Shown here: positions 1-50,924 of the stretch, piece by piece
How the letters are laid out: each line of letters starts with the position of its first letter
How positions within the stretch are numbered: position 1 is the first letter of the stretch
Assembly: GCA_963695545.1 (NCBI GenBank)
Contig: OY968796.1
Span: 608,001-672,000 of the forward strand
Length of the DNA: 64,000 nt
Direction of reading: 5' to 3'
Source: Terriglobia bacterium
GTDB taxonomy: Bacteria > Acidobacteriota > Terriglobia > Acidiferrales > UBA7541
Notes under the pieces: generated by a model
Databases searched by the model: none
What the model was told of the DNA's origin: nothing
The model's input: the letters and a program-made list of their open reading frames with translations, nothing else
Position numbers and translations under genes: made by a program

Positions 1-1557
1 CGCAACGTAAGCTTTGGCAAGGCTCCGCAGTGTGAGCAAGTCGTCCGGCTGCAACGCCAGTGCAATCTTGAGGTGCTCGATCGCCTCCGCGCTGCGATTC
101 GATTCAACCAGCGCATTCCCCAGATTGAATTGCGCGGCCTCGTAGCTCGGGTCGATCGCAACTGCCGCAAGATCGTGCTCGATGGATGCAGGAAGGTCAC
201 CGGCCTGCTGATACGCCAGCGCCAAGCCCGCTTGCAACCGCGCTGAATTCGGCGAAGCTAACACGGTAGCCTGATACAAACGCAAATCGTCGTGGAACAT
301 TGGGATGCGCCGCTCAATCTTCACGATGCAAAAAGCCAGCACGACCCCGAGGGCGCCCCACGCAACGCCGCGCGCCGGCTCAGTTCGCGCTCTCCGCAGC
401 AACCGCATCCAAAGCCACGCCGCGCAAATCGCAAATCCAAGCGACGGAATATAAAGATAGCGCTCGGTAAAATAATTCTCGCCGACCGCGTTGATATCGA
501 GAGCCGGCGCGAGAATGAGCAGAAACCACGCCACCGCGAACGCCAGCAGCGGCTGTCTTGCGCGCAAAAGAAACGGCAGCGCCACGAGCAACGCGAACAG
601 CAGCAGCGCCGCTACCGACGTGCGATTGAGCACAACCGTCGGCGGCGCGAAATAGAAAAAGTTGAAGCGCAAAGGCAGAAGCAGCTTGCCCACGTAGTGC
701 GCCAGCACGACGGGAACCGCGAAGGCAAGTTGCGCGGGCCGAAGGTGTAGATACGGCGCCGAACTCGGCGTAAATGCCCCCAGCGCACGCCAGCGCAACG
801 CGAAGTAAATCGCCAGCGCCGCGGCAAATGGCGCAATGCCCGGCCAAGCTTTCCAAAGTTGCAGCAGCGGCCGGCGCCGGTAGAAAAACTCATAAGACAA
901 AAGCACCAGCGGAAATAGCAGCGCCGTTTCTTTCGTCAAAAGTGCGGCGAGAAATGCGATCGCAGAGAGAGCAATCAGCCACCACGCGCGCCCGCCGCCG
1001 GCAGAGCGGGCCTTGTGATACGCCAGCATCGCGAGAAACAACAGCAGCCCGCAGATCAAATCAGGCAACGCCGCTACCCAAACGACCGCCTCCACATGCA
1101 TGGGATGAAGCGCGAACAAAAGGCATGCCCAAAACGCCAGATCCCAATCCGCCAGGCTCAGCAGCAGAAAATACGCCGCGACAATCGCGCCGGCGTTGAC
1201 GCAAACATTCACCAAATGCCAGGCCCACGCGCGATCGCCATAGATCGCGTATTCCGACGCGTAGACCATTAGTTGCAGTGGCCGGTAGTAATTGCTTAGA
1301 TGACTGCCGGCGAATCCCCAGGCATCCGTCGTGAAATATTCCGGCAGAGAATGCGAATCCGTCACAAAGTTATTGCGAAGAATTTGCAGATCGTCGTCCG
1401 CCACGAATCCATTGCGCAGAGCATTCGCGTACACCGCGAGCGACACGCCGAGAAGTACCAGCACCGGCCACCATCGAACGGGGGATGCAGCCGCCACCGG
1501 CCCCGCCGCGGCCACAGCGGGTTTATTTTTGGCGCGGGAATTTTGTCGACGCGACAT
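1..1557 (-). CDS. TMTC-like membrane glycosyltransferase (GT-C) with C-terminal TPR repeats; 3' end runs off the window
   Basis: Not in the ORF track; translated by hand from ATG 1557: MSRRQNSRAK..GFVADDDLQI..YYRPL..LHPMHVEAVVW..ERYLYIPS, then TPR helices (AQFNLGNAL..EAIEHLKIALALQP). Confidence 0.8.
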   Translation of the reverse strand, partial: MSRRQNSRAKNKPAVAAAGPVAAASPVRWWPVLVLLGVSLAVYANALRNGFVADDDLQILRNNFVTDSHSLPEYFTTDAWGFAGSHLSNYYRPLQLMVYASEYAIYGDRAWAWHLVNVCVNAGAIVAAYFLLLSLADWDLAFWACLLFALHPMHVEAVVWVAALPDLICGLLLFLAMLAYHKARSAGGGRAWWLIALSAIAFLAALLTKETALLFPLVLLSYEFFYRRRPLLQLWKAWPGIAPFAAALAIYFALRWRALGAFTPSSAPYLHLRPAQLAFAVPVVLAHYVGKLLLPLRFNFFYFAPPTVVLNRTSVAALLLFALLVALPFLLRARQPLLAFAVAWFLLILAPALDINAVGENYFTERYLYIPSLGFAICAAWLWMRLLRRARTEPARGVAWGALGVVLAFCIVKIERRIPMFHDDLRLYQATVLASPNSARLQAGLALAYQQAGDLPASIEHDLAAVAIDPSYEAAQFNLGNALVESNRSAEAIEHLKIALALQPDDLLTLRSLAKAYVA

Positions 1558-1689
1558 CGGCGCTCATTCTAGCGAGAAAAATCAACGCGGGCGAACCTTG
1601 GAATCGAAACTCGAGCCACGCGCCCCTCGCGCGTAACGCCGCGCCGCAGCTTGACGCGCTCAACCCTTTCGCTTAGAACTGATTCGAGC

Positions 1690-2541
1690 ATGCAACGCAT
1701 CCTTTCGACCTACCTCTTCGTCCGGCGCAAGCTCGGTCCGCCAATCATCGAAGCTGCGGCGCAGTCGGGCTTCACGGCGATCGAGCTATTCTGCTCGCGC
1801 TGGCATTTCGATTATCAATCGCCGACCGAAGCGCGCGCTCTCGGCGCGTGGCTCGACGCGCACGGACTCTCGCTGCACGCAGTCCACGCGCCCACGCAAC
1901 GCGATCAAGGCCCATCGCGCGAAAGCGGCTCGCCGATTGCGATCTCCGATCCCGAACGTGTGCGCCGGCTTGAAGCCGTGGACGAAATCAAGCGCGCGCT
2001 CGATCTCGCCGAATGCGTGCCCTTCAGGCTCCTCGTTTTGCACGTCGCCGGCTCGCGCGATCCCGACGAGCCGCGCCGCTGGGACGCCGCATTCAATTCC
2101 ATCGAGCATCTCGCGCTTTTCGCCAAACAGCGCGGCGTCGCGGTCGCGCTCGAAAACACGCCCGGCGAAATGCCCACGCCCGCGAATCTCCGCCGCTTTC
2201 TCGACCAAACGCGCCTCACCGACGTGCGTTTCTGTTTCGACGTCGGCCACGCGCACATGGGCGGCGGCATCGCCGTCGCGCTCGAGTCCATGCGCGATCG
2301 AATTGTCACCGCGCACATCCACGATAATCACGGCGAAAAGGACGAGCACCGTCTGCCCTTCGACGGCACCGTCGATTGGCCCGCCACGCTCGCCGCGCTG
2401 CCGCCGGAGACGCCGCTCGTTCTCGAATTGCGCGCGCCCGAAGTTCCGCTCGGCGCCGATCCGCCCGAGCCCGCCGCGCAGCTCGATGCCGCGCGCGCCG
2501 CGCTCGACCGCGTCGCGCAGGCACAGCCCGCGCGCGCCTGA
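1690..2541 (+). CDS. Sugar phosphate isomerase/epimerase (xylose isomerase-like TIM barrel)
   Basis: Motifs ALENTP, FDVGHAH, HIHDNHG..DEH, LE. ATG 1690 preferred over the TTG at 1651. Confidence 0.85.
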
Positions 2542-2554
2542 GGCAATCCCGATC

Positions 2555-3856
2555 ATGCCCATCGTGACCATCGAAGACGCCGGCCGCCACGCAGGAGAAG
2601 AAATCACGCTGCGCGGCTGGCTTTACAACATGCGCGAATCCGGCAAATTGCTCTTCCCGATTTTTCGCGACGGCACCGGACTCATGCAAGGCGTCGTCTC
2701 GCAGAAAGAGCAGCCCGATGCGTTTGAAGCGCTGCGCGGCCTGCCGCAGGAATCGAGCCTGATCGCCACCGGCATCGTGCGCCCCGAAGCGCGTGCCCCC
2801 GGCGGCTACGAACTCGGCGTCACGCAAATCGAAATCGTCAGCCGCGTGCCCGATGGCGAGCCTTATCCAATTCAATTGAAAGAGCACGGCGTAGATTTTC
2901 TTCTCGACCGCCGCCACCTGTGGATTCGCACTCCGCGCCAAGCCGCCATTCTGCGCATCCGCGCCGAAGCCATCCGCGCCGCGCGCGATTACATGGACAA
3001 TCAGGGCTACACGCTCACCGACGCCCCGATTTTCACTCCGGCCGCGTGCGAAGGCACCACCACGCTCTTCGAGGTCGATTATCTCGACGACGAAAAGGCC
3101 TACCTCACGCAGTCCGGCCAACTCTACGTGGAAGCCTTGGCTATGGCGCTCGGCAAGGTCTATTGTTTCGGCCCCACGTTTCGCGCCGAAAAATCCAAAA
3201 CGCGCCGCCATCTCACCGAATTCTGGATGCTCGAGCCCGAAGCCGCTTACGCCCATCTTGAAGACATGATGACGCTCGGCGAAGGTTTGGTCAGCCACAT
3301 GGTGCAATCCGTCGTCGAGCGTCGCGCGCGCGAACTCGAAGTTCTCAAGCGCGACGTCGCCAAGCTCGCCGCCGTCCGCGCCCCCTTCCCGCGCATCAGC
3401 TACGACGAAGCCGTCGCCATCCTGCAAAAAAATGGCAAGCCGACAAAGTGGGGCGACGATTTCGGCGGCGATGAAGAAACCGTGCTCTCCTCAAGCTACG
3501 ATCGCCCCGTGATGATTCATCGCTATCCCGCCGCGATTAAAGCTTTCTACATGCAGCCCGACGCCGCGCGCCCCGAACTCGCTCTCGGCTTCGATATGCT
3601 CGCTCCCGAAGGCTACGGCGAAATTATCGGCGGCGGCGAACGCATCGCCGATTACGATCTTCTGCTTCGACGCCTGCGCGAAAGCAATCTCCCCGAAGAA
3701 GCTTTCGGCTGGTACATCGACTTGCGCCGCTATGGCGGCGTTCCCCACACCGGCTTCGGCCTCGGCCTCGAACGCACCGTTGCGTGGATATGCGGTACCG
3801 AGCACATCCGCGAAGTGATCCCCTTCCCTCGCATGATTTATCGCGTTTATCCTTAG
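2555..3856 (+). CDS. asnS: Asparagine--tRNA ligase
   Basis: OB-fold start (ITLRGWL), [46 protein letters not shown]. True start MPIVTIED. Confidence 0.95.
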
Positions 3857-3884
3857 CAGGCCACACCGCGGACCGATTCGCACC

Positions 3885-4799
3885 ATGCCACAAAAAATTC
3901 GCATCATCGGCGTACCAATGGACCTCGGCCAAAGCCGCCGCGGCGTGGATATGGGCCCCTCCGCCGTGCGCGTAGCCGGCCTCCTAAGCCGCCTCAAGCA
4001 ACTCGGCCACCAAGTCGACGACATCGGCAACGTCGCCGTGAAGCAGCCCGAAGAACAACACTTCGGCGAAAAGCACGCCAAGTATCTGCGCGAAATCGCC
4101 GAAACCTGCCGCGGCCTCGCCGAAATCACCGAGCATTCTCTCGAAGAGGGTTTTCTCCCCGTCGTCCTCGGCGGAGATCATTCGCTCGCCGCAGGCTCGG
4201 GCTCCGGCGTCGCGAGCTTTTTCCGCAAGCAGGGCAAACGCGTCGGTTACATCTGGCTTGACGCCCACGGAGATATGAACACGCCTGACGGCTCGCCCTC
4301 AGGCAACGTGCACGGCATGCCGCTCGCCGCGCTGATGGGCCACGGCCCCGCGGACCTCGTCGATCTCTGCGGATTTCATCCCAAGATCGAGCCGCGCAAC
4401 GTCGTGCTCGTCGGCGTGCGCGAACTCGACGCCAAAGAGCGCCGCCTGATCAAGGATTCCGGCGTGCACGCCTTCACCATGCGCGATATCGATGAACGCG
4501 GCATGCGCGAAGTGATGAGCGACGCCATTCGCATTTCGACCGACGACGATGCCGCCGGCGCCGTCGTCAGCCTCGATCTCGATTTCGTCGATCCGTCCGA
4601 CGCACCCGGCGTAGGCACGCCCGTTCGCGGCGGCGTAACATATCGCGAAGCGCATCTTGCGCTCGAAATGATCGCTGATAGCGAAACCATGGTTTCGCTC
4701 GAAGTCGTCGAAATCAATCCCGTGATCGACGAGCACAACAAGACCGCGCTCTTGGCCGTCGAGCTGATCCTCTCCGGCCTTGGCAAGAAAATTCTGTAG
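3885..4799 (+). CDS. rocF: Arginase
   Basis: GGDHS, DAHGD, SGNVHGMP, SLDLD..DP..APGVGTPV motifs. Confidence 0.95.
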   Translation: MPQKIRIIGVPMDLGQSRRGVDMGPSAVRVAGLLSRLKQLGHQVDDIGNVAVKQPEEQHFGEKHAKYLREIAETCRGLAEITEHSLEEGFLPVVLGGDHSLAAGSGSGVASFFRKQGKRVGYIWLDAHGDMNTPDGSPSGNVHGMPLAALMGHGPADLVDLCGFHPKIEPRNVVLVGVRELDAKERRLIKDSGVHAFTMRDIDERGMREVMSDAIRISTDDDAAGAVVSLDLDFVDPSDAPGVGTPVRGGVTYREAHLALEMIADSETMVSLEVVEINPVIDEHNKTALLAVELILSGLGKKIL

Positions 4800-5103
4800 C
4801 GCGCCAGACGGCGGTCGGTGAGAACTTATGTTCACGTGGTGGCTGTAGTGGGTCACGTAGCGGAGGCCTTCAGGCCTCCATCTTGGTTTTGCTTTCTGCA
4901 GCGCGCCGCGGCCACGGATCGGTGAGAACGAATGTTCGCGCAAAGGGCTGTTCTGGATTATGTAGCGGAGGCCTTCAGGCCTCCATCTTGGTTTCGCTTT
5001 CTGTAGCGCGCCGCGGCCGCGGACCGGTGGGAACCTATGTTCGCGCGAAGGCTGCGTGGGTTATGTAGCGGAGACCTTCAGGTCTCCATCCTGGTTTTGC
5101 TTT
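4793..5103 (+). repeat. Three tandem ~104-bp units, each with a GTAG-headed REP-like hairpin (family A)
   Basis: GTAGCGGAG(G/A)CCTTCAGG(C/T)CTCCATC at 4857, 4962 and 5065; linkers are similar to one another. Confidence 0.9.
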
Positions 5104-5147
5104 AAACGCTCATGCCATCATCGAAATTTCGCGCGCCAAACTCATCC

Positions 5148-5233
5148 AGCCCCGTAGGGGCGGCACATTTTAGCCCAGGGCGGAAGCCCTGGGTACGAAT
5201 TGCCAAAAGGCAAAGCCCCGTAGGGGCGACACA
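5148..5233 (+). repeat. REP-like element family B (AGCCCCGTAGGGGCG / AGCCCAGGGCGGAAGCCCTGGG)
   Basis: Three hairpins; an inverted copy lies at 63920-63997. Confidence 0.85.
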
Positions 5234-5325
5234 GTCTTTACGTGAGAACCGTGGTCCCGCGCACCAAGATTATCGACCCATAAGTACGACACATCGCGCT
5301 AGCGGCGAACGGAGAACGAAATTAA

Positions 5326-6474
5326 ATGACCCAAGATAAAAAACGCCTGCGCATCGGCATCCTCTTCGGCGGCCGATCCGGCGAACACGAAGTCTCGCTC
5401 AATTCCGCCGCGTCCGTGATCGCCGCGCTCGATCCCGCGCGCTATGAAGTCGTGCCCATCGGCATCACCAAAGAAGGCCGCTGGCTCGCCGGCTCGTCCG
5501 CGCAGAAACTTCTGCCCGAAGTCCTGCGCACCGGCCAACGAGTCATGCTCGGCGCGGACCCCAATGTCGGCGCGCTCCTCCCGCTCGATAAAAACCAACC
5601 CGGCCTGCACGTCGACGTCGTCTTCCCCGTCCTCCACGGCACCTACGGCGAAGATGGCACCGTGCAGGGCCTGCTCGAACTCGCCGATTTGCCCTACGTT
5701 GGCTCAGGCGTCATCGGCTCGGCCGTCGGCATGGATAAGGACATGCAAAAGCGCCTCTTCCTCCAGGCCAAGCTCCCCGTCGCCGATTTCCTAGCCGTCA
5801 CCCGCGCTCGATGGAAACGCGAACCGCAAAAAATTCGCCGCGAGATCGAAAAGAAATTCCGCTACCCCGTTTTCGTCAAACCCGCCACGCTCGGCAGCTC
5901 CGTCGGAATGACCAAAGCGCACAATCGCGCCGAGCTCGTTCAAGCGCTCAATTTTGCCGCCGAGTTCGCGCAAAAACTGATCGTCGAACGCACCATCCGC
6001 GGCCGCGAAATCGAACTCTCCGTTCTCGGCAACGAGCAAGCCCGCGCCTCCATCCCCGGCGAAATCGTTCCTCACCGTGAATTTTACGATTACGAAGCGA
6101 AGTATCTCGAAGAAGGCACGCGCCTGATCATCCCCGCGAAACTTTCAAAATCCCAAGTGATGCGTTTCCAGGACCTGGCTGTTCGCGCATTTCACGCCGT
6201 CGAAGCCCTGGGTCTCGCCCGCGTCGATTTCTTCCTCGAGCGCGGCACAAACCGCATCTACTTGAACGAAATCAACACCATCCCCGGCTTCACCTCCATC
6301 AGCATGTATCCCAAACTCTGGGAAGCCTCCGGCCTTTCCTACCGCGCCCTGCTCGACGAGCTGATCGAACTCGCTCTCGCGCAGCATCGCGAAAAACAGC
6401 GCACCAAGTACACCATCGAGTTGCCCTCGGATTCCTTGCCGCCCGGTCCGTCCGCCGACGCGCTCAAGAAATGA
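5326..6474 (+). CDS. ddl: D-alanine--D-alanine ligase
   Basis: GGRSGEHEVS, LHGTYGEDG, FVKPATLGSSVG, FYDYEAKY, NEINTIPG. Confidence 0.96.
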   Translation: MTQDKKRLRIGILFGGRSGEHEVSLNSAASVIAALDPARYEVVPIGITKEGRWLAGSSAQKLLPEVLRTGQRVMLGADPNVGALLPLDKNQPGLHVDVVFPVLHGTYGEDGTVQGLLELADLPYVGSGVIGSAVGMDKDMQKRLFLQAKLPVADFLAVTRARWKREPQKIRREIEKKFRYPVFVKPATLGSSVGMTKAHNRAELVQALNFAAEFAQKLIVERTIRGREIELSVLGNEQARASIPGEIVPHREFYDYEAKYLEEGTRLIIPAKLSKSQVMRFQDLAVRAFHAVEALGLARVDFFLERGTNRIYLNEINTIPGFTSISMYPKLWEASGLSYRALLDELIELALAQHREKQRTKYTIELPSDSLPPGPSADALKK

Positions 6475-6490
6475 ACCGCAATTGAACACT

Positions 6491-6531
6491 GGGTGCCGCG
6501 CCCTCCGGTTCTGAGCGTGCGGGTTTTGACT
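6491..6531 (+). repeat. REP-like hairpin family C (GGGTGCC...GGTTTTGACT)
   Basis: Related copies at 9306-9347, 50925-50965 and 50979-51028. Confidence 0.6.
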
Positions 6532-6547
6532 GTCCTCCGCGTGCGCA

Positions 6548-6834
6548 GCATTCGAATGAATTTCCACAGCCTTTTCGAATAACCACGAAGTACATGTTGA
6601 CATGCATAACATCGACGTGCTATGATTCGGCGTGCTTCGCGAATCCCTACCTTCGCCGCCCGAGAAACTTCTCGCCTTCTCCCGCGCATTCTCACTTTTC
6701 ACCCGTAACCCTTCCGGAATCAACACTTCTGAAAAACGCCATTTTAAATCCACTAGAATCAACACTTCTGGCGCAAAGGACTTAAAGTCGAGCAGAATCA
6801 ACACTTCCATAAAACACCCCGGGGGTAGGGGGGG
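6548..6834 (+). other. Dispersed promoter-bearing intergenic element, copy 1, with three 39-nt-period GAATCAACACTTC repeats
   Basis: Head nearly identical to 31711-31743; internal repeats at ~6717, 6756 and 6795; CCGGGGGT tail. Confidence 0.8.
6597..6626 (+). promoter_or_regulatory. Sigma70-type promoter TTGACA-N18-TATGAT with extended -10 TG
   Basis: Near-consensus match inside element copy 1. Confidence 0.7.
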
Positions 6835-7114
6835 CTCCGCCCCGCGATGCATCGGTTTTTTCGATCATCGCCGAACCGCGGCTTCTCTCGATCGGCGTCC
6901 CGACGGTGTCGGTGTGCGGCGCCATGAATAAAATCAGCGGCGGCGCAACATTCGGGCGCGCGCGCAAGTTTGACCGCCCCCGCGCCGCCGCGTTAACCTT
7001 ACGGTTCGCATTTGATCGCAATATCGATCGCGGCCCGCGAATTGCGCCCTTGCCGTCGGCGCGGATACCTGAAATTCACGAACGTCGGCCGAATCGGCCC
7101 TCGGTGAGGACGAG

Positions 7115-8203
7115 ATGAAAGGTTCGCGCTTCTGGATTTTTCTGGGCGTGCTCTTCGTGGTCGGTGTAATCGTCTACATCACCACCACTCCGCACTCGCG
7201 CGACATTCCGCTCGTCGGCATCGTCACCACCAACGATGCCATCGTCAGTTCGCAGGTCACCGGCCGCATCGCGAAGCTCTACGTCGATGAAGGCTCCGAG
7301 GTAAAGACCGGCCAATTGATCGCCGAGCTCGATCCTACCGATCTCCAGGCCCAACTCGCCTCCGCGCAGGCCAATGTCGCCGCGCTCGCCGCCAAAGTGC
7401 AATCGGCCCACGCCACCACCACCATGACCGACGCCCAAACTTCCGCCGCCATCGCGCAGGCCCAAGCCACGCTGGCTTCGTCGCGCGCCGAACTTGCGCA
7501 ATCGCAAGCCAATCTTCAGCTCGACAAGGTCACCTACGATCGCGACGAAGGACTCTTCAAAGGAGGCGCGCTCGCCGCGCAGGACCGCGACAATGCCGAA
7601 TCCGCCTACAAAGCCGCTCAGGCCGCCGAGCAAGCCGCCGAAGCCCAAGTGAACGCCGCCGCGGACGCGCTAAAATCCGCGCAAGCCAATCGGCAGGAAT
7701 TGAACGTGCAAGTAAGCGACACCGCTTCGACGCAGGCGCAATTGGCCCAGGCTCGCGCCGAAGTCGCGCAGGCGCAAACCCAACTCGGCTATACGAAAAT
7801 CGTTTCCCCGCTCGACGGCGTCGTTTCCGTGCGCGCCGCGCTGCAAGGCGAAATCGTCCAGGTCGGCGCGCCGATCGTCACCGTGGTTGACATTGACCAT
7901 CCTTGGGTCGAGGCCGACGTGCAGGAAAGTTTCGAGGACGATATTCAGTTCGGCCAGAAACTGAAAGTCCAACTGCCCTCGGGCGACGAACTTGAAGGCA
8001 CGGTCTATTACAAGGCCGTCCAGAACGACTACGCCACGCAGCGCGACGTCAGCCGCACCAAGCGCGACATCAAAACTTTCGCCATCAAAGTCTCCCTCCC
8101 GAACCCCGGCCGCCGTCTGTTCGAGGGCATGACCGCCACCGTCCTTCTGCCACCGCCCCCGTCTCAAAAGAACTGGCTCGAACGCCTCCTGGCGATCCTG
8201 TGA
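7115..8203 (+). CDS. HlyD-family efflux membrane fusion protein
   Basis: N-terminal TM anchor, lipoyl halves (VTGRIAKLYVDEGSEV; IVSPLDGVV), long Ala/Gln coiled coil. Confidence 0.92.
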   Translation: MKGSRFWIFLGVLFVVGVIVYITTTPHSRDIPLVGIVTTNDAIVSSQVTGRIAKLYVDEGSEVKTGQLIAELDPTDLQAQLASAQANVAALAAKVQSAHATTTMTDAQTSAAIAQAQATLASSRAELAQSQANLQLDKVTYDRDEGLFKGGALAAQDRDNAESAYKAAQAAEQAAEAQVNAAADALKSAQANRQELNVQVSDTASTQAQLAQARAEVAQAQTQLGYTKIVSPLDGVVSVRAALQGEIVQVGAPIVTVVDIDHPWVEADVQESFEDDIQFGQKLKVQLPSGDELEGTVYYKAVQNDYATQRDVSRTKRDIKTFAIKVSLPNPGRRLFEGMTATVLLPPPPSQKNWLERLLAIL

Positions 8204-8228
8204 CGCCCCGGCCCCGGAGCACGCCGCG

Positions 8229-9215
<987 letters not shown>

Positions 9216-9305
9216 AGCGCTAGTGGAATTTCGCGCGCCTCGACTCGGCAGTATCGCTCGAAAGCGCGCTCCTACGTTCACTTCGGTGCCCAGCACACTG
9301 CGCGA

Positions 9306-9347
9306 GTGTGCCCCACACGTCGGTTTTACGTGTGGGGGTTTTGACTT
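9306..9347 (+). repeat. REP-like hairpin family C inside the efflux operon
   Basis: CCCCACACGT-CGGTTTT-ACGTGTGGGG followed by GTTTTGACTT. Confidence 0.65.
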
Positions 9348-9383
9348 CGGCTTTAATCGATCGCGTGGAGCGTTCCGCCTCAC

Positions 9384-10502
9384 ATGAGGTTCTATCGCAT
9401 CTCCGCCCTGATCGAACGCGACATGCGGAAGTTTTTCCGCAGCCCGGCGCTCATGAGCGTCGCGATGGTCGCCCCGTTGTTGCAGCTCGTGGTCCTTGGC
9501 TACGCCTTCGGCGGCGAAATCCATGGCGTGAAAATCGCGGTGGTCGACAACGATCACCAGAACGGTGCGCGCGTAGTCGAAGAGCATATCGACGCGATCG
9601 AAGCCAACGCCGGTACGTTCCGCGCCGTGTATTACGACTCGCTCAGCGACGCGACCATCGATCTGCGCACAGGTTTCGTTCGCGCCATCGTCTACATTCC
9701 TCCCGATTACTCGCGCCGGGTGGAGCATGGCGATAATCCCAAGCTCGTGCTTGTCGAAGACAATTCCGACGCCGAGATCACCAGCGCAATCTCCGCGCGC
9801 CTCCAAAGCGTCGTACAAGATGTGAACGCGCCGCCGGAGACCCCGCGCTTGCCGCAGCAGGTAAGCCTTCAAATGGTCGAGCTTTACCCGTATATCGAGT
9901 ACATCAAATATTTACTGCCCGGCGTGGTGGCCATCTCGATTTTCGTGGTGGCCATGATCGGTGGCGGCATCGTCTTCATCGACGATAAGTCGCGCGGCCT
10001 GCACGAAGGTTATCTCGTCACGCCCGTGCACAAATTAGAGCTCGTCTTGGGCCTGGTGCTTTCCGGCGCGATCAAGGGCGTGATGGCCGGCACCACGGTC
10101 GCCATCATCGGCGGCCTGATCGCCGGCATCGATCGCATTTGGGATCCGCTGCGTCTGGTCTACGTTGTTGTGGTGATCGCCGCCGGCTCGCTCACAATGA
10201 TTAGCTTCATGTTCCTCACGATGGTGCGCGTCAGCGATCCGCTGGTGCCGCGCGCTGTGTTCGGCGTGCTCAATACGCTGCTGTTTTTTCCATCGGGCGC
10301 CGTTTATCCGGTTGAAGGGTTTCCTGTGTGGCTGCGCTGGATTTCGTGGGTCGATCCGCTCAGCTACATCGTGCACGCGCTCAAGAATCTTTTTCTGAAG
10401 AATACCGGGTTCATGGGCATATATTCGGACGTGGCGGTGCTGTTGGGTTATTCATTGTTTTTCATATTGATGTGCAACGCGCTGTTCAAACGGCAAATCT
10501 AA
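9384..10502 (+). CDS. ABC-2 permease
   Basis: One N-terminal TM, a periplasmic domain, then five TMs; follows the ATPase. Confidence 0.92.
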   Translation: MRFYRISALIERDMRKFFRSPALMSVAMVAPLLQLVVLGYAFGGEIHGVKIAVVDNDHQNGARVVEEHIDAIEANAGTFRAVYYDSLSDATIDLRTGFVRAIVYIPPDYSRRVEHGDNPKLVLVEDNSDAEITSAISARLQSVVQDVNAPPETPRLPQQVSLQMVELYPYIEYIKYLLPGVVAISIFVVAMIGGGIVFIDDKSRGLHEGYLVTPVHKLELVLGLVLSGAIKGVMAGTTVAIIGGLIAGIDRIWDPLRLVYVVVVIAAGSLTMISFMFLTMVRVSDPLVPRAVFGVLNTLLFFPSGAVYPVEGFPVWLRWISWVDPLSYIVHALKNLFLKNTGFMGIYSDVAVLLGYSLFFILMCNALFKRQI

Positions 10503-10577
10503 CCTGGCGTCAGCGCCATCGCGAACTGCGATCGGACGTGACGACTGAGCGCGACGTTCAAGCACAAGGAGCGTTCT

Positions 10578-11027
10578 GTGGGATTGCTCGACGCCGACCA
10601 CCAAAAGCCACCATCGAAGCGGTTGCGCTACGTCGTCAGCGGCCTCGCGCTTCTGATTCTCGTGGGTATCGGCCTATGGTTTGCTTTCCGATACGAACCC
10701 GAGAAACGCGTGGTCGAGAATTTCATGAACGCGGTCGTCGCCGGAAATTTTCAGCAGGCTTATCAAATATGGCATCCGCATTCCAGCTATCCCTACGGCG
10801 AATTCCTCGAAGATTGGGGAACGCAGGGTTATTACGGCCCAATTTTAAGCTATCACGTGGAATCGGCCACCGAGCCGGACGGCGGAAGCGGCGTGATCGT
10901 GACCGTCGAAGTCAGCCCGTTTTCGCCCTATCCCGACGCGAACGATCCGAAAAGCGGCCGCACCAAGGAAGTGCAGATTTGGGTGGAGCGCTCGGACAAA
11001 TCGCTAAGCTTCCCGCCGCCGTCTTAA
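10578..11027 (+). CDS. Hypothetical single-TM protein
   Basis: AAGGAG RBS, GTG start, one TM followed by a soluble domain. Confidence 0.75.
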   Translation: MGLLDADHQKPPSKRLRYVVSGLALLILVGIGLWFAFRYEPEKRVVENFMNAVVAGNFQQAYQIWHPHSSYPYGEFLEDWGTQGYYGPILSYHVESATEPDGGSGVIVTVEVSPFSPYPDANDPKSGRTKEVQIWVERSDKSLSFPPPS

Positions 11028-11094
11028 CGATTTTGCGCGCCAAAAGCGATAGCGCGCTCGCGCGCTATCGCGCGCTGGCGCAGCGCCGGATGCG

Positions 11095-12183
11095 TTAGCT
11101 GAGTTCGCGAAGCGCCGCGGACAATTCCACCGGCGAAAGCGTGGCCGTGCCGAGCTTGCCGACCACGATTCCGGCGGCGATGTTCGCAAGACGCGCGGCA
11201 TCGGCAATGCGCGCCCCCGCCGCAATTCCGAGCGTCAGCACGGAAAGCACGGTGTCGCCTGCGCCAGTGACGTCGAAAACTTGCCGGCCCGCCGCGGCGC
11301 GGTCCACACCCGGCAATCCCACGCGCGCGTAGCTGACTTCAAAACTCGTCGCGGGAATATGCAGCGCGTGCGGAGCGGAATCCTCGAACACCGTCATGCC
11401 GCGTTCGCCGCGAGTGATCACCACGGCGGCGCAGCCAAAGTGCGCGAGCAGCGCGCGCCCCGCTTCTTCCAGTGAATCGTCTCCGGCGAGAGAACGTGTG
11501 ACGAAGAACCCCGCTTCCTTCGCGTTGCACACGATGGCCGTCGCGCCGCGATACGCGAACAGGCGCGACGTCTTCGGCTTGACCAGCGCGCGCACGCCGC
11601 GTCGATTGGCCTCTGCGAGCACGCGCTCCGCGAGCGCGTCGGTGACGACTCCCTTGTCGTAATCGGGCACCACCAGCGCGTCCAATCGCGGCAGCGCGAC
11701 CTTGATGCGGCGAATCAAGCGCTCTTCCAGCGCCGGAGCAAGCGGCGCGCGGCGCTCGCGATCCACGCGAACCACTTGCTGATGCCGCGCGATGATGCGC
11801 GTCTTCACGGTGGTGATGCGCGTCGCGTCCTCGAGCACGCCCTTGGCGCCGATTCCCTGCGCGGCAAAACATCGTCCCAAAGCCGCGCCCGCTTCGTCGG
11901 CGCCAATCACGCCGAACACTTCAACCGCCGCGCCCAGCGCCGCAAGATTCGCGGCGACGTTGCCCGCGCCGCCAAGCACTTGCGATTCCGACGTGAAATC
12001 CACCACCGGCACCGCGGCTTCGGGCGACATCCGATCCGCCGAACCCCACAGGTAGCGATCCAGCATCAAATCGCCAACCACGCCGATGCGGCGTCCGCGA
12101 AACGAGCGGATCAATCGCTCGAGTCGCGCTCGCGACGATTTGTTTTCAGATGCCGCCGCGGCGCGGCGGGATTTAGGACTCAT
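11095..12183 (-). CDS. rfaE1: D-glycero-beta-D-manno-heptose-7-phosphate kinase (HldE kinase domain)
   Basis: VVGDLMLDRY..RMSPEAAVPV, GGAGNVAANL, DYDKG, DVTGAGDT, VGKLGT. Confidence 0.9.
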   Translation of the reverse strand: MSPKSRRAAAASENKSSRARLERLIRSFRGRRIGVVGDLMLDRYLWGSADRMSPEAAVPVVDFTSESQVLGGAGNVAANLAALGAAVEVFGVIGADEAGAALGRCFAAQGIGAKGVLEDATRITTVKTRIIARHQQVVRVDRERRAPLAPALEERLIRRIKVALPRLDALVVPDYDKGVVTDALAERVLAEANRRGVRALVKPKTSRLFAYRGATAIVCNAKEAGFFVTRSLAGDDSLEEAGRALLAHFGCAAVVITRGERGMTVFEDSAPHALHIPATSFEVSYARVGLPGVDRAAAGRQVFDVTGAGDTVLSVLTLGIAAGARIADAARLANIAAGIVVGKLGTATLSPVELSAALRELS

Positions 12184-12373
12184 CGGATTTTGTTTCGTCG
12201 ATCTGGGCTTCGTCGGCCAACATCACAGGAAAACCGTCGCGAATCGGATAAATGCGCCGGCAAGTTTTGCAGCGCAGCGCTTCGCGATCGATCATTTGCT
12301 GGACGGGCGTGCGGCACACGGGGCAAACCAGGCGCGCCAGCAATTCGCGGTCAACAAGCACAGCAACTCCCAC
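12173..12373 (-). CDS. Trm112-family protein
   Basis: LVCPVCR..LRCKTC..YPIRDGFPVML. Confidence 0.88.
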   Translation of the reverse strand: MGVAVLVDRELLARLVCPVCRTPVQQMIDREALRCKTCRRIYPIRDGFPVMLADEAQIDETKSDES

Positions 12374-12459
12374 ACGACCCGAAGGGCCTGCGGCTCACGA
12401 CTCTAGCAGAGAGCTTTTCGCAGAAGCAACCGGCGCAGCTCGGTGCCGCCGAACTCAGC

Positions 12460-14574
12460 TCAGCGAGCCGGCCCAATGCGCAGCACAACCTCGTTCGTCC
12501 AGATGGTTCCCGGCAAAAGGTGCGCAGTCCAAACCGGCATGATCTGGGAACCTTGGTAGACGCGCTCAAATCCATCTTCGGATTCGGAAACGGTCTCGAT
12601 CGGCGCGACCCAGAAATGTTTGGCTTCGCGTGCCTCAATAACCACCGCGACATTCTGCCAGCCGTCCACCACGCGCAGCGACGGTCCCGACGCAATCCCG
12701 ATCCACGCGAGGCGGTGATCGCCGTCGGCGGTTTGAAAGAGGCGGTCAGGCTCGTCCGGCGCGAGAAAGTTCAGGACGATTTCGATGCCGGCCTCGAACT
12801 CCGCCGAGGAGGTGCCGACCAGCGACATCTCGACCGCGCAACGAACCTCGAAGCCGGGACCGGCCGGCGCAAAGTCGAATCGTTTGAGAACGTGCAGCGT
12901 GCCCTGGCCCACGGTCGCTTCGGCCGTCGCGATCACGCGCCCGCCGGTGACTTCCTCGATGCGATACGCGCCCCCGGCGAACGCCGCGTGCTCTTGAAGA
13001 CGCAGAGCGTCGTAGTCATCGAGCGTTTTGTGCGGCGGAAACAGCACGAGGCGGAACGCGTGGCGCGGCCAGCGGTCGTATCGAAGCCGGCGCTCGAGAC
13101 CTTCTTCCTTGGCGCGCGTGCGATCGTGAATCGAAGTGACCTCGGATGCGGTTCCGCTCGAAAGGGCGCGCAAGCGATCGTGATACGCCTCGGGGCGACG
13201 CATCATCGAATTGATCAGCGTGGCCCCGGCTCGGCGATCGTCGAGCGCGGCGATAGTTGCGCCGTCGCTGGGCTTCACGAGCGCGGAAAATCGCGGCGAC
13301 GTGACGATCACTTCGTCGGCGCCGTCGGAATCGAAATCTGAGGTCGTCGCGCAGACCTCGTGCTGGCCGCGACCGCGGACCGATTCAGCGAGCGTTTCGG
13401 CGCGGATCGCCTCGCGCCACAGCGCAGTGCGCAGGTGCGGCGCGTAGACACCGCCGAAAACGCCGTGCCAGTAGGCGTCGTTGCACTGCCCGCGCAGAAC
13501 ATGTGTTCGCGCTTCGGCCAGTTTTTGCGCGGCGGCGGCGCCGCGACGGCGGTGGCCCAACAGTTCGATTTCGCGCGAAGCGCGCAGCATTTTCTTGTTC
13601 AGGAGATTCGATTCGGCGTACTTGCTGAAAAACCCGCGCCAAAAATTCCCGGAAAGAAACTGCAGCACTTCCGGTTCGTTCGCGAAACGCTGCCGAACAT
13701 TATGGAAGCGCATGCGAGCGGCGGTGGGAAGCGCCCACTCCATCATTTCGGTGTACGAGGCGGCGGGCAGATCGGCGCGGCCGAGAGGCGCGTGCGTTGC
13801 AAGATATTCGCCCGGAGGCACAACCGAAAGCCACGACGATTCCACCTCGAGCGCGGAGAAGAAGCGGTCGAGCCAGCCGTTTGTATAGCAATGATCGTAG
13901 GTGCCCGGCCAGGAGCCAAATTTTTCGAGATCGTCGCCCATCGCGGCCATTCCGTCGGGATGGCGCGAAGAGGAATCGCGCAGAAACCCCACGACTTCGC
14001 CGACGTCGCGGAACGGCACAAGGTAGCGCAACGCCTGCAAGCCCGGAACGAGCTTGACGTTGTGGCCGCCGTCCTCAGCGACATAGCAGCCGAACATCTG
14101 CTCCGGCTCGAAGCCTGCGGAAAGAAAATGGCTGTCGTCCACCAGCGTGTATTCCACGCCCGCAGCTGCGAGCGACGACGGCAATTGTGGCTCCCACACG
14201 CGCTCGGCGAGCCACGCGCCGCGTGGACGCTTTCCGAAGTAGCGCTCGAGGAACGCGGCGAGACGTTCGATTTGTTCGCGCTGGTCCGCAAGCGGGATGG
14301 AGATCAAAATCGGTTCGTAGAATCCGCCGCCGACGAGCTCGATCTGCCCGCGCGCGGCCATCTCCGCGAGCTGCGCGAAATATTCCGGATGCGTCGCGGA
14401 CAACCATTCAAGCAAAGGTCCGGAATAGTGCAGGCCAATGCGAACACCCGGGTGCCGCGCCAGGCATTCAATAAACGGCAAATACGACTGGCGATAAGTG
14501 CGCTCGAAAACCGCGTCAAAATTGCCGACGGGTTGATGCGCGTGTATCAGCAGAACAAAGTGGAACTTCGGCAC
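12460..14574 (-). CDS. GH57 4-alpha-glucanotransferase/amylase
   Basis: HAHQP, GAWLAERVWEP, DDLEKFG, QCNDAYWHGVFGG, C-terminal SEDGFERVYQG. Confidence 0.92.
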   Translation of the reverse strand: MPKFHFVLLIHAHQPVGNFDAVFERTYRQSYLPFIECLARHPGVRIGLHYSGPLLEWLSATHPEYFAQLAEMAARGQIELVGGGFYEPILISIPLADQREQIERLAAFLERYFGKRPRGAWLAERVWEPQLPSSLAAAGVEYTLVDDSHFLSAGFEPEQMFGCYVAEDGGHNVKLVPGLQALRYLVPFRDVGEVVGFLRDSSSRHPDGMAAMGDDLEKFGSWPGTYDHCYTNGWLDRFFSALEVESSWLSVVPPGEYLATHAPLGRADLPAASYTEMMEWALPTAARMRFHNVRQRFANEPEVLQFLSGNFWRGFFSKYAESNLLNKKMLRASREIELLGHRRRGAAAAQKLAEARTHVLRGQCNDAYWHGVFGGVYAPHLRTALWREAIRAETLAESVRGRGQHEVCATTSDFDSDGADEVIVTSPRFSALVKPSDGATIAALDDRRAGATLINSMMRRPEAYHDRLRALSSGTASEVTSIHDRTRAKEEGLERRLRYDRWPRHAFRLVLFPPHKTLDDYDALRLQEHAAFAGGAYRIEEVTGGRVIATAEATVGQGTLHVLKRFDFAPAGPGFEVRCAVEMSLVGTSSAEFEAGIEIVLNFLAPDEPDRLFQTADGDHRLAWIGIASGPSLRVVDGWQNVAVVIEAREAKHFWVAPIETVSESEDGFERVYQGSQIMPVWTAHLLPGTIWTNEVVLRIGPAR

Positions 14575-14774
14575 GCGGCCACCACGCTTGGGATTCTCTT
14601 AGGATGATTGCGCCGCGGGAGGATCCTCAGCGCACGAGACGCTCGAGGGCCCGGCCCCGGCGGCAAACTTCGGGCGGCCTCGTCGGGGAGACCAAAAGAA
14701 ACGGCGGAGCGCCAGGGCCCCGCCGTCATCACGATGCTCGCGAGTTGCAGCGGATGGTGCCGCGAATCCGGCGG

Positions 14775-15041
14775 CTACGCTTTCTTCTCGTACCAATCGG
14801 AGTTCACTTTCGTGAAGCTCGACCATTTCTCAGGAAGATCCTCGAGCGCAAAAATCGCGGTCACCGGGCAAACCGGCACGCAGGCTCCGCAATCGATACA
14901 TTCTACGGGGCTTATGTAGAGTTGCGGCTCGGCCTCGAAGGTCGGCTCATCCTTGCGCGGGTGGATGCAGTCCACCGGACAGACATCCACGCAGGCCGTA
15001 TCCTTGGTTCCGATACACGGCTCAGCGATTACGTAGGCCAT
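14775..15041 (-). CDS. Ferredoxin (7Fe/4Fe-4S dicluster type)
   Basis: CVDVCPVDCIH..CIDCGACVPVCP. Confidence 0.95.
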   Translation of the reverse strand: MAYVIAEPCIGTKDTACVDVCPVDCIHPRKDEPTFEAEPQLYISPVECIDCGACVPVCPVTAIFALEDLPEKWSSFTKVNSDWYEKKA

Positions 15042-15119
15042 CGCGTGTCTCCTTAGCAGCCAGACCAGCCTGCTTCACCGAATTTGCGCTGCAAACCGCC
15101 GCAAACAGGTCGAAAAAAG

Positions 15120-15148
15120 TTTATATCACCAAACTCGGAGGCGCACAA
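15120..15148 (-). promoter_or_regulatory. Putative sigma70 promoter of the ferredoxin gene (TTGTGC-N17-TATAAA, extended -10)
   Basis: Motif and spacing only. Confidence 0.4.
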
Positions 15149-15311
15149 GTCACCCGACCCAGGCCCGATTTGGGACCCTATGCCTAGGCTACATTCTAGC
15201 AGGTACGCGGTGGCGACGCCCTGCAGCCGCTAACGCACAATCCGAGGCGGCACTGCGGCGTTAGCTACGACAACCACCGGGATATTGCGGCTTCGGGGCC
15301 GGGGTCGCGCT

Positions 15312-15929
15312 CTAGTAGCACAGGCCTACGATTTTGCGAACGTGCTCGGGATGCTCCCCTTCATTGAGAAAAAAATGCGCGACGTCGGCGCGCGAGATCG
15401 AGCGCGCTTTACCCGGCAGCGAGCCGTCGGCAATTTGATAGGACTCGGTTTTCGGACCATTGGTCAGGCGCGGTGGACGCGCGATCGTCCAATCGAGGCC
15501 GCTTTCCATCACGAGCTTTTCCATTTCGCGCGAATCGTTGAGGCCGTGCCGGAGGATGTAACTGATGATGGGAGTTAGAACGGGAGGGCCCACGTCCGGA
15601 AATAGCAGCGCGGCCGATAGCATCAGCAGCCGGCGCATGCCGCCCGCCTGCATGGCTTGAATCACGCACTTGGCCGAGGCCGCGATCAATGGCGTGGCTT
15701 TTAGATCGCGATGACCGAGCGTGGAAATCACCACGTCCTGGGCCACGAGCACGCGCGCAATTTGCTCGGCGTTGGTCACATCTCCACCGTGTACCACGAG
15801 GGCGGGATTACGAACGGTGATTTTCTGAGGCGAGCGAACCAGCGCAGTGATGACGTGTCCGCGCGCCAACCCCTGCTCAATTAAGGCGCGGCCTGTGCCT
15901 CCGGTTGCGCCTAAGAGAAAGATATTCAT
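15312..15929 (-). CDS. NAD(P)H-binding oxidoreductase (flavin reductase/NmrA-like)
   Basis: GATGGTG, LDWTIARP, ISRADVA. Confidence 0.9.
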   Translation of the reverse strand: MNIFLLGATGGTGRALIEQGLARGHVITALVRSPQKITVRNPALVVHGGDVTNAEQIARVLVAQDVVISTLGHRDLKATPLIAASAKCVIQAMQAGGMRRLLMLSAALLFPDVGPPVLTPIISYILRHGLNDSREMEKLVMESGLDWTIARPPRLTNGPKTESYQIADGSLPGKARSISRADVAHFFLNEGEHPEHVRKIVGLCY

Positions 15930-15949
15930 GATCGGCCCCTCGCGAGCTC

Positions 15950-16504
15950 TTAGGTCTTCCGTTTGCTGATGTCGCAAAGCATGTCTGAATGGATGTTCAG
16001 GCCGATGTTGGTCATGTTGTAGACGTGTTCGCTGGCGACCAGCCAGACGATTTCGCAGATCGCGCGTTCGGAATAATGGCGGGACATCCGCGCGAAGGTT
16101 TCCGGATTAATTTTCTTGTCGCGCGTCAGCTCGGTCACATAGTCGAGCGCTGAGCGTTCTGCCTCGGAGAAAAGAGGGCTGGTGCTGTGTTCATCGAGCG
16201 CGTCGAATTTGGCTTCATTCATCGACGCTTTGATCGCGAACGACCGGGCGATGTCTATGCAGAAAAGGCAGACGTTGATGCGCGCCACCTGATGGCGGAT
16301 GAGCATCGCGGTTTCCTTCGGGAGCAGCAGCTTCTTATCGAGCGAGCCAATTTTCCCGTAGAACATGCCGAAGGCGAGCGGCATCCGCGCGGAAAATACC
16401 TTTAGCGGCGTGAGCACTTTGCCGAATTGCCGGCGCGTCGCGGCATACACAAACTTCATCATCAGCCCACGCGGCTTTTCAATCGGTGGAAGGAAGGTAT
16501 CCAT
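15950..16504 (-). CDS. Carboxymuconolactone decarboxylase/AhpD-like protein
   Basis: Start MDTFLPP; VARINVCLFCID, FSEAERSALDY. Confidence 0.85.
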   Translation of the reverse strand: MDTFLPPIEKPRGLMMKFVYAATRRQFGKVLTPLKVFSARMPLAFGMFYGKIGSLDKKLLLPKETAMLIRHQVARINVCLFCIDIARSFAIKASMNEAKFDALDEHSTSPLFSEAERSALDYVTELTRDKKINPETFARMSRHYSERAICEIVWLVASEHVYNMTNIGLNIHSDMLCDISKRKT

Positions 16505-16509
16505 TGCGG

Positions 16510-17070
16510 TCACGCCTCCAATTCCAGTGTGCGCGGACGACGGAAGGTCTGCACGCTGACGACAAGCCCGGCAAGCGTCGCGCACGCAAGGACCACCAAG
16601 CTTGGCACCAGAGCCGGCTTTCCCGTCATCAGGTATACAATTCCGAGGGCCAGCGCCAATCGAATTCGCAGCGACGCGACGAGCAACGGGTCGTGCGCCA
16701 GGGTGCGGAGCCCGATTGGCACCGGGCCCGCGCCCTCGAGGTGTACGGCGCGAATTCTGCGCAGTCGGCGGCCGGTGACCGCTCCACCCAGTGCGCCGAT
16801 GATGACGAGGGCGGCGAGCGAGGGCACGATCCAACCGACGCTCGCGCGGCCGATTTTTGCCGCGAGATAACCTCCGGTGAGCAGAACCAGCGCGCCCGAG
16901 GAGCCGAACAGAATGGGAACGCTGCGAAGAGCGCCGATCGCGGCGCGAAAATCGGCGGCGGCGGCCGCTTTGCGGAACAACGCCGTGGAGACCCATTCAA
17001 GTCCGAGGCCGACGAAAATACCCATGGCGGCGACAATGTGCAGGAACAGGATGACCGAGTAAAACGTCAT
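16510..17070 (-). CDS. Membrane protein, DUF2269-like
   Basis: LFLHIVAA..LLTGGYL..YLMTGKP, 4-5 TMs, AGGAGG RBS. Confidence 0.75.
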   Translation of the reverse strand: MTFYSVILFLHIVAAMGIFVGLGLEWVSTALFRKAAAAADFRAAIGALRSVPILFGSSGALVLLTGGYLAAKIGRASVGWIVPSLAALVIIGALGGAVTGRRLRRIRAVHLEGAGPVPIGLRTLAHDPLLVASLRIRLALALGIVYLMTGKPALVPSLVVLACATLAGLVVSVQTFRRPRTLELEA

Positions 17071-17146
17071 GTGTGCCTCCTTAGAAACAAGCTGCGCGCC
17101 GTTTGAATATAGCTTACTATACTGAATATGTCTAGATATAGCTAAA

Positions 17147-17782
17147 ATGAAAAAACAACCACAACGTCGCTATCGTTCGACTCACCGCGACCAGCAGGCG
17201 GACCAGACCCGCCGGCGCATCGAGGATGCCGCGCTGCGCCTTTTCTTGCGCAAAGGCGTCGAAGAGACGACCATGCATGCGATTGCGCGCGAAGCCGGCG
17301 TGGCCACGCCGACGGTTTATTCCGTCTTCAAATCGAAACGCGGAATCGTGGAGGGGCTGATCGAACGCGCCCTGTTCACGCCGGCCTACGACGCCCTGGT
17401 GCGCGAAGCGTTGGGCTCGCACGATCCAGCCACGCGGCTGCGGTACGCCGCGCGAATCGCGAGGGGGATTTTCGATTCGCTGCGCGGCCAGGCGAAATTG
17501 CTGCGCGCTGCGAGCGCGATCGTGCCCGATCTGATGCGCGATAAGGAGCGCATGCGATTCGAGCGGCAGGCGGGCCTGGTGGATCTTCTGGTGCGAGCGA
17601 ATGCGCTTCGCCACGGCGTCGATCGGGGCGCGGCGCGCGACATCTTGTGGACGCTTACGAATCGGGAGAACTATCGAAATCTGGTCGGAGAGCGCGGCTG
17701 GAGTTCGCAGCACTACGAAGATTGGCTGGGCGACACGCTGGTCGCCACACTGTTGAAACCGAGACGCGCAAATTCCAAATAA
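17147..17782 (+). CDS. TetR/AcrR-family regulator, divergent from the three-gene operon
   Basis: TTMHAIAREAGVATPTVYSVFKSK helix-turn-helix. Confidence 0.93.
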   Translation: MKKQPQRRYRSTHRDQQADQTRRRIEDAALRLFLRKGVEETTMHAIAREAGVATPTVYSVFKSKRGIVEGLIERALFTPAYDALVREALGSHDPATRLRYAARIARGIFDSLRGQAKLLRAASAIVPDLMRDKERMRFERQAGLVDLLVRANALRHGVDRGAARDILWTLTNRENYRNLVGERGWSSQHYEDWLGDTLVATLLKPRRANSK

Positions 17783-17866
17783 ATATGCATCGCGGCATTC
17801 AGCGCCGCGACCGCGTTAGAATAATCGAGTGCGTTCCGGCCAGATGCAGGAACGCGGAGGATTTCG

Positions 17867-18589: not shown

Positions 18590-18631
18590 GCGCGAGATCA
18601 AAAACTTCAAAGAAGAAAGAGAGAGAATCCA

Positions 18632-19264: not shown

Positions 19265-19294
19265 CGCAAGCGCGCAGCGTGGCTCACGCGCGCT

Positions 19295-30153: not shown

Positions 30154-30324
30154 GGTCACCGCGCTCCACGGGAGATCCCCCTGCTAAAGCCTGCAACCGA
30201 TGTTGCGCGCCTTACCCCGGAATCATTCGTTCACAGCGTGCTTGAATCAATGCATGATCCGGTTTAGCGTAAGCCTAACGTCGGATCCGCGATGCCTCTG
30301 CGCCAACAAAACTGTCGAGCAATC

Positions 30325-32079: not shown

Positions 32080-32263
32080 AGGCGATTCTCGCCACAAACC
32101 TAAAGTGCTGCCTGAGAATTGCGCGGCAACTCGCGGAAGCCTCGCGCCATCAATCTCTTACAGCGTCCGTTCCGTTGTGCGGGGCGCTGCCCGGTTCCCT
32201 GCGGATCACTCGCCGGGATATTTCACGCTGGCGCTTTCCGCTGCCGCTACAATAGCTCCTCGG

Positions 32264-50919: not shown

Positions 50920-50924
50920 GAGAG

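Follow-up and report, generated by a model that had tools for sequence, protein, structure and literature searches.

A single origin of replication is the accepted rule for bacterial chromosomes. In lambdoid origin modules, a repressed promoter reads into a leaderless or short ORF that contains iterons inside its open frame, and transcription activates these lambda-type origins. In Bartonella, a run-off replication origin derived from a phage is coupled to BaGTA, according to the available part of PMC2697382. GTAs are held to package without defined start sites (available text of PMC6854486), and the accessible sections of the RcGTA and DsGTA papers (PMC6854486, PMC5786225) describe no discrete start sites or motifs and a TerS without DNA-binding domain, while regularly spaced two-way packaging peaks are proposed for DsGTA in the available text of PMC5786225. 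Here, a family of small oriented cassettes is described in a Terriglobia bacterium (genome G000), in which three copies lie in the stretch of 64,000 nucleotides that was analysed as a whole (the window).

Anatomy and extent of the cassette family

The copies of the window are found at 6548-6834 (copy 1, + strand), 31711-32079 (copy 2, + strand) and 63421-63823 (copy 3, - strand). An earlier note on this DNA had attributed to them a common ordered architecture, and both order and spacings were borne out at all three loci: the distance from TTTCGAATA to TTGACA is 15, 19 and 12 nt in copies 1, 2 and 3, the -35/-10 spacers measure 18, 18 and 17 nt, and the tail is present in each. The 12-mer that had been listed as shared, GCATTCGAATGA, is indeed present in all three (about 90 nt further upstream in copy 3 than in the other two), but in the whole 4.16-Mb genome it is restricted to them, the family-wide unit being TTCGAA. 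This hexamer, proposed as a pair of control sites, is borne by the elements in varying number, from one to three in each. Instead of one common body there are two, since copies 2 and 3 are alike and carry 10-bp inverted arms about 50 nt apart (type B), whereas copy 1 contains three 39-bp repeats (type A). The CGTG that had been placed at the transcription start site contains a GTG start codon, and across the family this position is occupied by ATG or GTG and, once, by TTG.

Copy 1 has a predicted operator region (6551-6581), in which TTCGAA at 6551-56 and 6574-79 surrounds ATTTCCACA at 6560-68, a nonamer with one mismatch to the DnaA-box consensus. It is followed by a predicted sigma70-type promoter (6597-6626; TTGACA at 6597-6602, extended -10 TGCTATGAT at 6618-26) and by a leaderless ORF with a GTG start (6632-6931, 99 aa) that has no stop across the direct repeats (A/G)GAATCAACACTT, three units at 6716, 6755 and 6794 with a 39-bp period (6716-6806). 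The palindrome GACTTAAAGTC (6779-89) lies within the repeat region, and the family similarity stops at the tail (6811-6834), made of an A-run, a C-run and a G-run. Copy 2 has TTCGAA at 31714-19 and 31736-41, a third one at 31659, ATTTCCACA at 31723-31, a predicted TTGACA at 31763-68 and the -10 TACACT at 31787-92; its leaderless GTG ORF (31799-35383, 1194 aa in total) is open across the body, whose arms are AAAGAGTGCG (31957-66) and CACACTCTTT (32016-25), and continues in frame with a downstream gene for a secretin-domain protein. Copy 3, on the opposite strand, has TTCGAA at 63815-20, 63723-28 and, downstream of the start, 63652-57, a predicted promoter in the same region (63652-63820; TTGACA at 63703-08, extended -10 at 63680-88), a GTG start at 63672-74, arms at 63538-47 and 63478-87, and a tail at 63421-45.

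The claim that the element is spread through the genome holds far beyond the window, with 111 elements in the single 4.16-Mb contig. Profile searches of this contig yielded 104 bodies (22 of type A and 82 of type B) and 103 promoter matches, which were merged into the 111 elements after subtracting two tails split off by IS insertions. The pattern TTCGAA-N10-40-TTGAC-N17-20-TAnnnT-N5-RTG has 85 matches in the genome and none in the reversed control, and is thus far above chance. The shared order runs from one to three TTCGAA, often with ATTTCCACA in either orientation, through TTGACA, an extended -10 and a start codon 5-6 nt after it, to a variable C-rich stretch, the repeat body and a G-run tail. 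A search for DnaA boxes in 82 upstream regions gave no perfect box, and boxes with one mismatch in either orientation in 40 of the 82 (9 in shuffles). The genes lexA and recA and two other repair-like genes are preceded by a GGCGAA-N5-GGCGAA-like direct repeat, an apparent SOS box (at 2228518 for lexA, 2212418 for recA, and at 1909295 and 1482352). Compared by motif and spacing, the cassettes differ from this apparent LexA box, with TTCGAA at spacings of 13-26 bp that are unlike the lexA/recA repeat.

Beyond this genome, the strict promoter pattern is present at least five times in 25 of 200 genomes of the bacterial family, spanning five genera, and in a sample of 300 other genomes of the phylum it occurs once in 17 and more than once in none. 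The same cassette layout with diverged repeats is found in G006 and G070, and composite bodies in G095, which belongs to another genus. Homologues of one cassette-linked protein carry the source labels Candidatus Acidiferrum or Acidoferrum. The family tallies take in G016, G024, G072, G091, G570 and G222, which are flagged as unpublished and on which no claim stands alone. That the element matches no RNA family was confirmed, with no Rfam covariance model matching any of 13 cassette loci at E up to 1; in an Rfam scan of the window the sole match, Acido-Lenti-1 at 5148-5193, lies outside the cassettes. Tandem REP-like palindromes are found beside this match (window 4850-5260), and REP-like units also occur upstream of copy 3 (63750-64000) and inside several cassettes, where they leave the frame open. 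Literature searches, which covered sources other than subscription journals and supplements, found no description of the cassette. The family is real and, as far as searched, undescribed, and the proposal of a dispersed, TTCGAA-bearing element with a (predicted) promoter of its own and no known family is supported.

Among 88 bodies with a promoter, automatic placement of the -10 gave a start codon in 78; the ten left out of the frame test include one false promoter, and in most of the others an ATG or GTG lies two bases upstream, as expected if the -10 had been misplaced. The start-codon frame is stop-free through the body in 71 of the 78 copies, against about 9 expected from dinucleotide shuffles, and contains 8 stops in all, against about 171 in the shuffles. 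The idea that all three sense frames are open was ruled out, because the other two hold 182 and 225 stops in the same copies and are almost always closed. In type B, the start-codon frame differs between copies and uses all three registers of the conserved body, and in type A one frame is kept in 15 of 17 copies, with a pN/pS of 0.68. The open frame, the freedom of register and this pN/pS together suggest that translation appears to be selected while the peptide mostly is not, which makes the cassettes an example of selection for translation independent of peptide sequence. They also account for hundreds of frame-shifting "hypothetical proteins" in databases (637 matches). Longer proteins ending in the type A peptide (8/18 matches examined) correspond to read-through into ordinary genes or to longer cassette ORFs, and none to a terminase.

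The proposal of an ncRNA is poorly supported, since the predicted transcript is a leaderless mRNA with a selected open frame, and compensatory changes were absent from all 18 predicted pairs in 13 type A bodies. Likewise, the type B arms of 78 copies show no compensatory pairs, their breaks being mostly mismatches, and the type B body folds better than shuffles (z -2.4) but its antisense strand does so equally (z -2.3). As far as their sequence goes, the repeats behave like DNA sites, with a 39-bp period in type A and inverted arms 49-50 nt apart in type B.

Even spacing and oriented GC skew

The cassettes are spaced more evenly than random placement predicts (CV 0.58 versus 0.99, with none of 10,000 random placements below 0.70), at a mean distance of 37 kb. 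They are also accompanied by an oriented GC skew, measured at synonymous or fourfold sites of newly made gene calls and read on the strand of the element. At fourfold sites, values rise from -0.32 at -2 to 0 kb through zero near +4 kb (+0.02 at 4-6 kb) to +0.17 at 10-12 kb; the profile is alike in genes on either strand, and the G-rich strand is also A-rich. Of the 111 elements, 104 have a negative skew at -6 to +2 kb. Of 85 skew minima, 74 lie within 12 kb of an element that points at them, compared with a mean of 29 and a maximum of 39 in shifted controls; an element points away in 6 of the 85. When the skew is predicted by a distance kernel from the positions of the elements, 42% and 50% of the held-out variance is explained, against 0 or less in shifted controls. 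In the window, the footprint of copy 1 (1-20000) is a residual synonymous skew of -0.3 to -0.5 at 0-8 kb, zero near 12 kb and +0.15 at 16-20 kb, and copy 3 shows its mirror image (50000-64000), with +0.4 at 60-64 kb and up to +0.64 just past the window.

The median position of the switch is 4.2 kb downstream of the cassette, spread over kilobases, and not at the site itself as expected for an origin of the oriC type. The profile is nearly the same whether the downstream genes run with or against the element, so that the skew is not a by-product of downstream transcription, and the offset of the switch is only weakly correlated with how far the co-oriented genes run (rho 0.23, p 0.036, n=84), which argues against priming at the end of the transcript. 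Copy age has no influence on the skew. Where neighbouring elements are more than 60 kb apart, the skew on the upstream side dies away by about 20-24 kb, before the midpoint, and a model of meeting forks fits slightly worse (0.40). The chromosome has a dnaA gene, but no replichore skew is centred on it (0.000 versus -0.005, with 53% of gene bases on the putative leading strand).

The skew profile is found again in G070, around its one pattern match, and in G095, at 19 loci of its 32 pattern matches (-0.44 at -6 to -4 kb and +0.16 at +8 to +10 kb). At the ddl locus, the orthologues that lie upstream of the copy-1 site have a skew of -0.31 in G000 and -0.20 in G056, in which the site is filled, versus +0.20 in G082, in which it is empty. 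In the region of copy 2, the skew is equally negative in G056 and G082, both without this copy, which a rearranged orthologue of copy 3 may explain. No skew switch is seen at dnaA in G355 and G018, and in G070 the switch lies 35-55 kb away from it. The G070 switch opens an 80-kb domain with +0.4 skew (G070:C1:6644000-6720000) that begins 35-55 kb before dnaA and spans it; in this genome the strict promoter pattern is matched once, and neither TerL nor the capsid gene was matched. Skew domains occur in G018 and G355 without any detected element of the family; in G355, from another family of the class, they have an SD of 0.15 per 4 kb (L106-L125), and, with the missing switch at dnaA, suggest that the loss of the replichore signature is wider than the cassette-bearing family. 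All three Acidobacteria genomes in table 1 of PMC3148964 have ten or more switches, and, together with the domains of G018 and G355, this indicates that the skew may be older than the cassette family. G018, of a genus without the cassette promoter, contains an AT-rich repeat family with CTAATCGCCACA units (L090:19530-19630, L093:18226-18327, L096:19772-19860), possibly an analogous cassette.

Proposed local DNA synthesis and rival explanations

On the anatomy, even spacing, oriented skew and open-frame selection without selection of a single peptide that have been shown here, we would tentatively build an explanation in which the cassettes are old, evenly spaced, DNA-level sites that launch local DNA synthesis. 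A protein complex would load at the cassette, and two-directional synthesis would start in a zone about 4 kb downstream and reach about 20-30 kb each way. The predicted promoter would be gated by a TTCGAA-binding regulator, and ribosomes on the leaderless ORF would carry transcription across the repeats, in the manner of the transcriptional activation of lambda-type origins; without them, the C-rich transcript would invite Rho. The repeats would bind a trans-acting protein, the best candidate being a protein with CCCH zinc fingers whose genes are found only behind cassettes. A change in the sign of the skew close to a site, with decay over 20-30 kb on either side, would be expected from strand-asymmetric synthesis that starts there, given G-rich leading strands; the G-rich strand is assumed to be the leading one in this lineage, and, if the C-rich strand leads, the cassettes would be terminus-like sites. 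On this ground local initiation is favoured over packaging starts, and, because the reach is limited, run-off synthesis agrees slightly better with the data than a complete replication from many origins. Against local synthesis stand the skew domains without element in G018 and G355, the copy-2 region of relatives without copy 2, the fading of the skew short of the midpoint and the lack of skew polarity at dnaA in the outgroups G355, G018 and G070. Moreover, type B copies without the TTCGAA-TTGAC pair are equally skewed (-0.30, n=12, versus -0.29, n=70), the zinc-finger gene accompanies only 4 of 111 copies, and we know of no bacterial origin that fires kilobases from its binding site.

A further-reaching version, possible but doubtful to us, is that in Acidiferrales about 100 start sites, evenly spaced and gated by transcription, form a lattice like that of eukaryotes, assembled from parts of phage terminases and origins, at which much of the inherited DNA would be made, by chromosome copying or by amplification and packaging, so that the signature of a single oriC has vanished.

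The explanation that survives best beside local synthesis, although rather unlikely, is that the cassettes are pac-like packaging starts. The zinc-finger protein would be a small terminase that has changed its target, binds to the repeats and brings in the large terminase (TerL) from a resident head-tail cluster or from visiting phages, the cut would be made a few kb downstream with packaging in two directions, and the skew would record strand-polar transfer and recombination. In its favour, G000 has one phage head-tail cluster (3.384-3.413 Mb) with matches to TerL (detected by PF03237; no PF03354 TerL and no PF04860 portal were found) and to a major head protein. TerL of this cluster is present in 129 of 192 genomes of the bacterial family, the order TerL-p97-portal is kept in 11 of 11 other loci examined and the capsid gene has 59-83% identity in 10 of the 11, so that the cluster is conserved and apparently kept by the host as in GTAs, its vertical descent being judged only from identity that tracks kinship. 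The cluster (G000:C1:3384000-3420000) has a strong predicted promoter with a terminator immediately after it, HTH, initiator-like and 129-aa genes upstream, and an IS3-like element between the portal and capsid genes; this initiator-like gene is found in 2 of 5 genomes. In G018, TerL is broken into pieces, and dense REP-like repeats and strong skew surround it (L078). The mean spacing of 37 kb is close to a headful, and two-way packaging from regularly spaced peaks is what the available text of PMC5786225 proposes for DsGTA.

The four CCCH zinc-finger genes of G000 are each found directly behind a cassette tail, and in relatives, by comparison of coordinates, many such genes lie a few hundred bases behind promoter matches. 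A C-terminal motif is common to three of the four proteins and to the product of a 92-aa gene in the head-tail cluster, whose C-terminal residues agree at 12 of 12 positions with one cassette zinc-finger protein and at 10 of 12 with another, whereas other six-frame ORFs (59,113) reach at most 7. This suggests, from the tails, either descent of the zinc-finger protein from a phage small terminase or contact with one. In the atlas, the 92-aa protein lies close to phage clusters and to DUF5681 (0.92-0.95), which is no more than a lead. It is a candidate TerS at most, since no copy of the gene turned up in the other 11 cluster windows and viral contigs yielded no relative; Pfam, PHROG and Foldseek gave no match. 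For the zinc-finger protein, the same three resources gave no family or fold match and viral and PDB libraries nothing at E 0.001 or better, and many members of its family end in a different tail. A single viral match to the zinc-finger alignment was set aside for lack of a coherent same-strand gene, and a single GTDB match because it covered 36 residues.

The distribution of the two components also speaks against packaging. The zinc-finger gene is present in 46 of 150 genomes of the bacterial family and in none of 82 from genera g2, g7, g8, g11 and g15, and yet g2, g7, g8 and g15 are mostly TerL-positive. Conversely, five genomes with cassettes and zinc-finger genes (G008, G064, G085, G032, G070) gave no TerL or capsid match, four of these being fragmented assemblies. 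In addition, a full cassette was absent from all 60 viral loci in which the promoter pattern occurs, TTCGAA is absent from the late promoter of the head-tail cluster, and we know of no route from packaging to a heritable skew of this size. The phage link is real in G000, judging from these genes, but may be one of ancestry and not of present dependence; the cassettes are possibly tied to a tamed phage, and local synthesis and packaging could be coupled, as in Bartonella.

It is less probable still that the cassettes are mobile promoter-leader units that switch on their neighbours and land in fixed orientation in skew domains of other origin. A similar predicted promoter precedes unrelated genes, as putative mobile promoters would; the downstream gene is co-oriented in 80 of 111 cases, the ORF sometimes continues in frame into ordinary genes (as in copy 2), atypical genes are enriched just upstream (46% versus about 14%), and skew domains exist in genomes without detected element. 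A 432-aa gene with a weak endoglycoceramidase match (30292-31590), upstream of copy 2, fits the excess of atypical genes. Nevertheless, 31 of the 111 elements face the next gene with unchanged skew, and neither the even spacing nor the conserved repeats nor the reversed skew at the empty site of G082 would be explained.

Non-autonomous transposon-like elements, evenly spaced through target immunity, are very unlikely, and the earlier proposal of a present-day mobile element is poorly supported. Several repeated, binding-site-like units, a sharp 3' boundary and filled and empty orthologous sites would suit such elements, but there are no young copies, nearest-neighbour identity having a median of 86% and a maximum of 91% in local alignments (n=96; aligned type B bodies reach 94%). 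Terminal repeats and target duplications are not in excess, direct or inverted, as own and swapped flanks of 88 copies give the same repeat lengths. Ten promoter matches have no body within 600 nt, none of them with a long element ORF ending in a body, and the skew would be left unexplained. Similarity between copies does not depend on the distance between them. Copies 1 and 3 are in orthologous placement in G056, whereas in G082 the copy-1 site is empty, as the earlier note had suggested looking for, with a junction too diverged to read, so that copies are still gained or lost over longer times and the family turns over slowly, as far as these sites indicate. At the copy-3 site, G082 has small foreign genes and an apparent remnant of the element, and copy 2 with its upstream 432-aa gene is missing from both genomes. 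Contigs of four DNA runs from one study contained no joint skipping copy 1, and those of two of them none skipping copy 2, contigs being unable to prove absence.

In two type A cassettes (G000:C1:343586-346849 and ~245280-247700), different transposons interrupt one and the same palindrome; they have terminal inverted repeats, a CTTAAAG duplication, cargo genes and a transposase that looks IS1595-like. REP-associated transposase genes, presumably RAYT-like, lie directly upstream of the elements near 1201009, 1426648 and 1474201, two of which are the most similar pair in the family.

Least probable are structured ncRNA genes or a small-protein family, for which the strong predicted promoter, the type B fold and the single type A frame could be cited and which the equally folded antisense strand, the uncompensated pairs and mismatched arms, type B peptides in all three registers, the type A pN/pS and the lack of an Rfam match oppose; for readings other than these five, a small probability is kept.

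Comparison with known systems

In a chromosome without an oriC signature, one defined cassette explains close to half of the strand asymmetry seen locally, and the family provides exact coordinates for tests of multi-origin replication, run-off amplification and site-directed packaging in a soil lineage that is abundant. By analogy, the cassette would work like a lambdoid origin or a pac module, though it could not be firmly placed in any of the families tested. It shares with the lambdoid origin module an operator, a strong predicted promoter and a frame, predicted to be translated, over direct repeats, but differs in being chromosomal, in having no initiator gene, in a switch about 4 kb away and in its approximately 110 copies. 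With the run-off origin of Bartonella, as described in the available part of PMC2697382, it would have in common local two-way synthesis, proposed here, from a site other than oriC in a genome with a conserved, domesticated head-tail cluster; there, a single phage-derived origin is involved, whereas here about 110 small cassettes, oriented and evenly spaced, carry a fixed mutational footprint. Like RcGTA and DsGTA in the accessible text of PMC6854486 and PMC5786225, this lineage has a conserved and apparently host-kept packaging cluster; unlike them, it has cassettes as discrete sites and a zinc-finger protein whose tail is shared. Finally, a repeated promoter before unrelated genes recalls putative mobile promoters and Correia, ERIC and REPIN elements (PMC3575422, available part), but those elements are mostly pairs of about 92% identity, and the cassettes form a large, old family, marked by repeats and an open frame under selection, evenly spaced and with a footprint in the skew.
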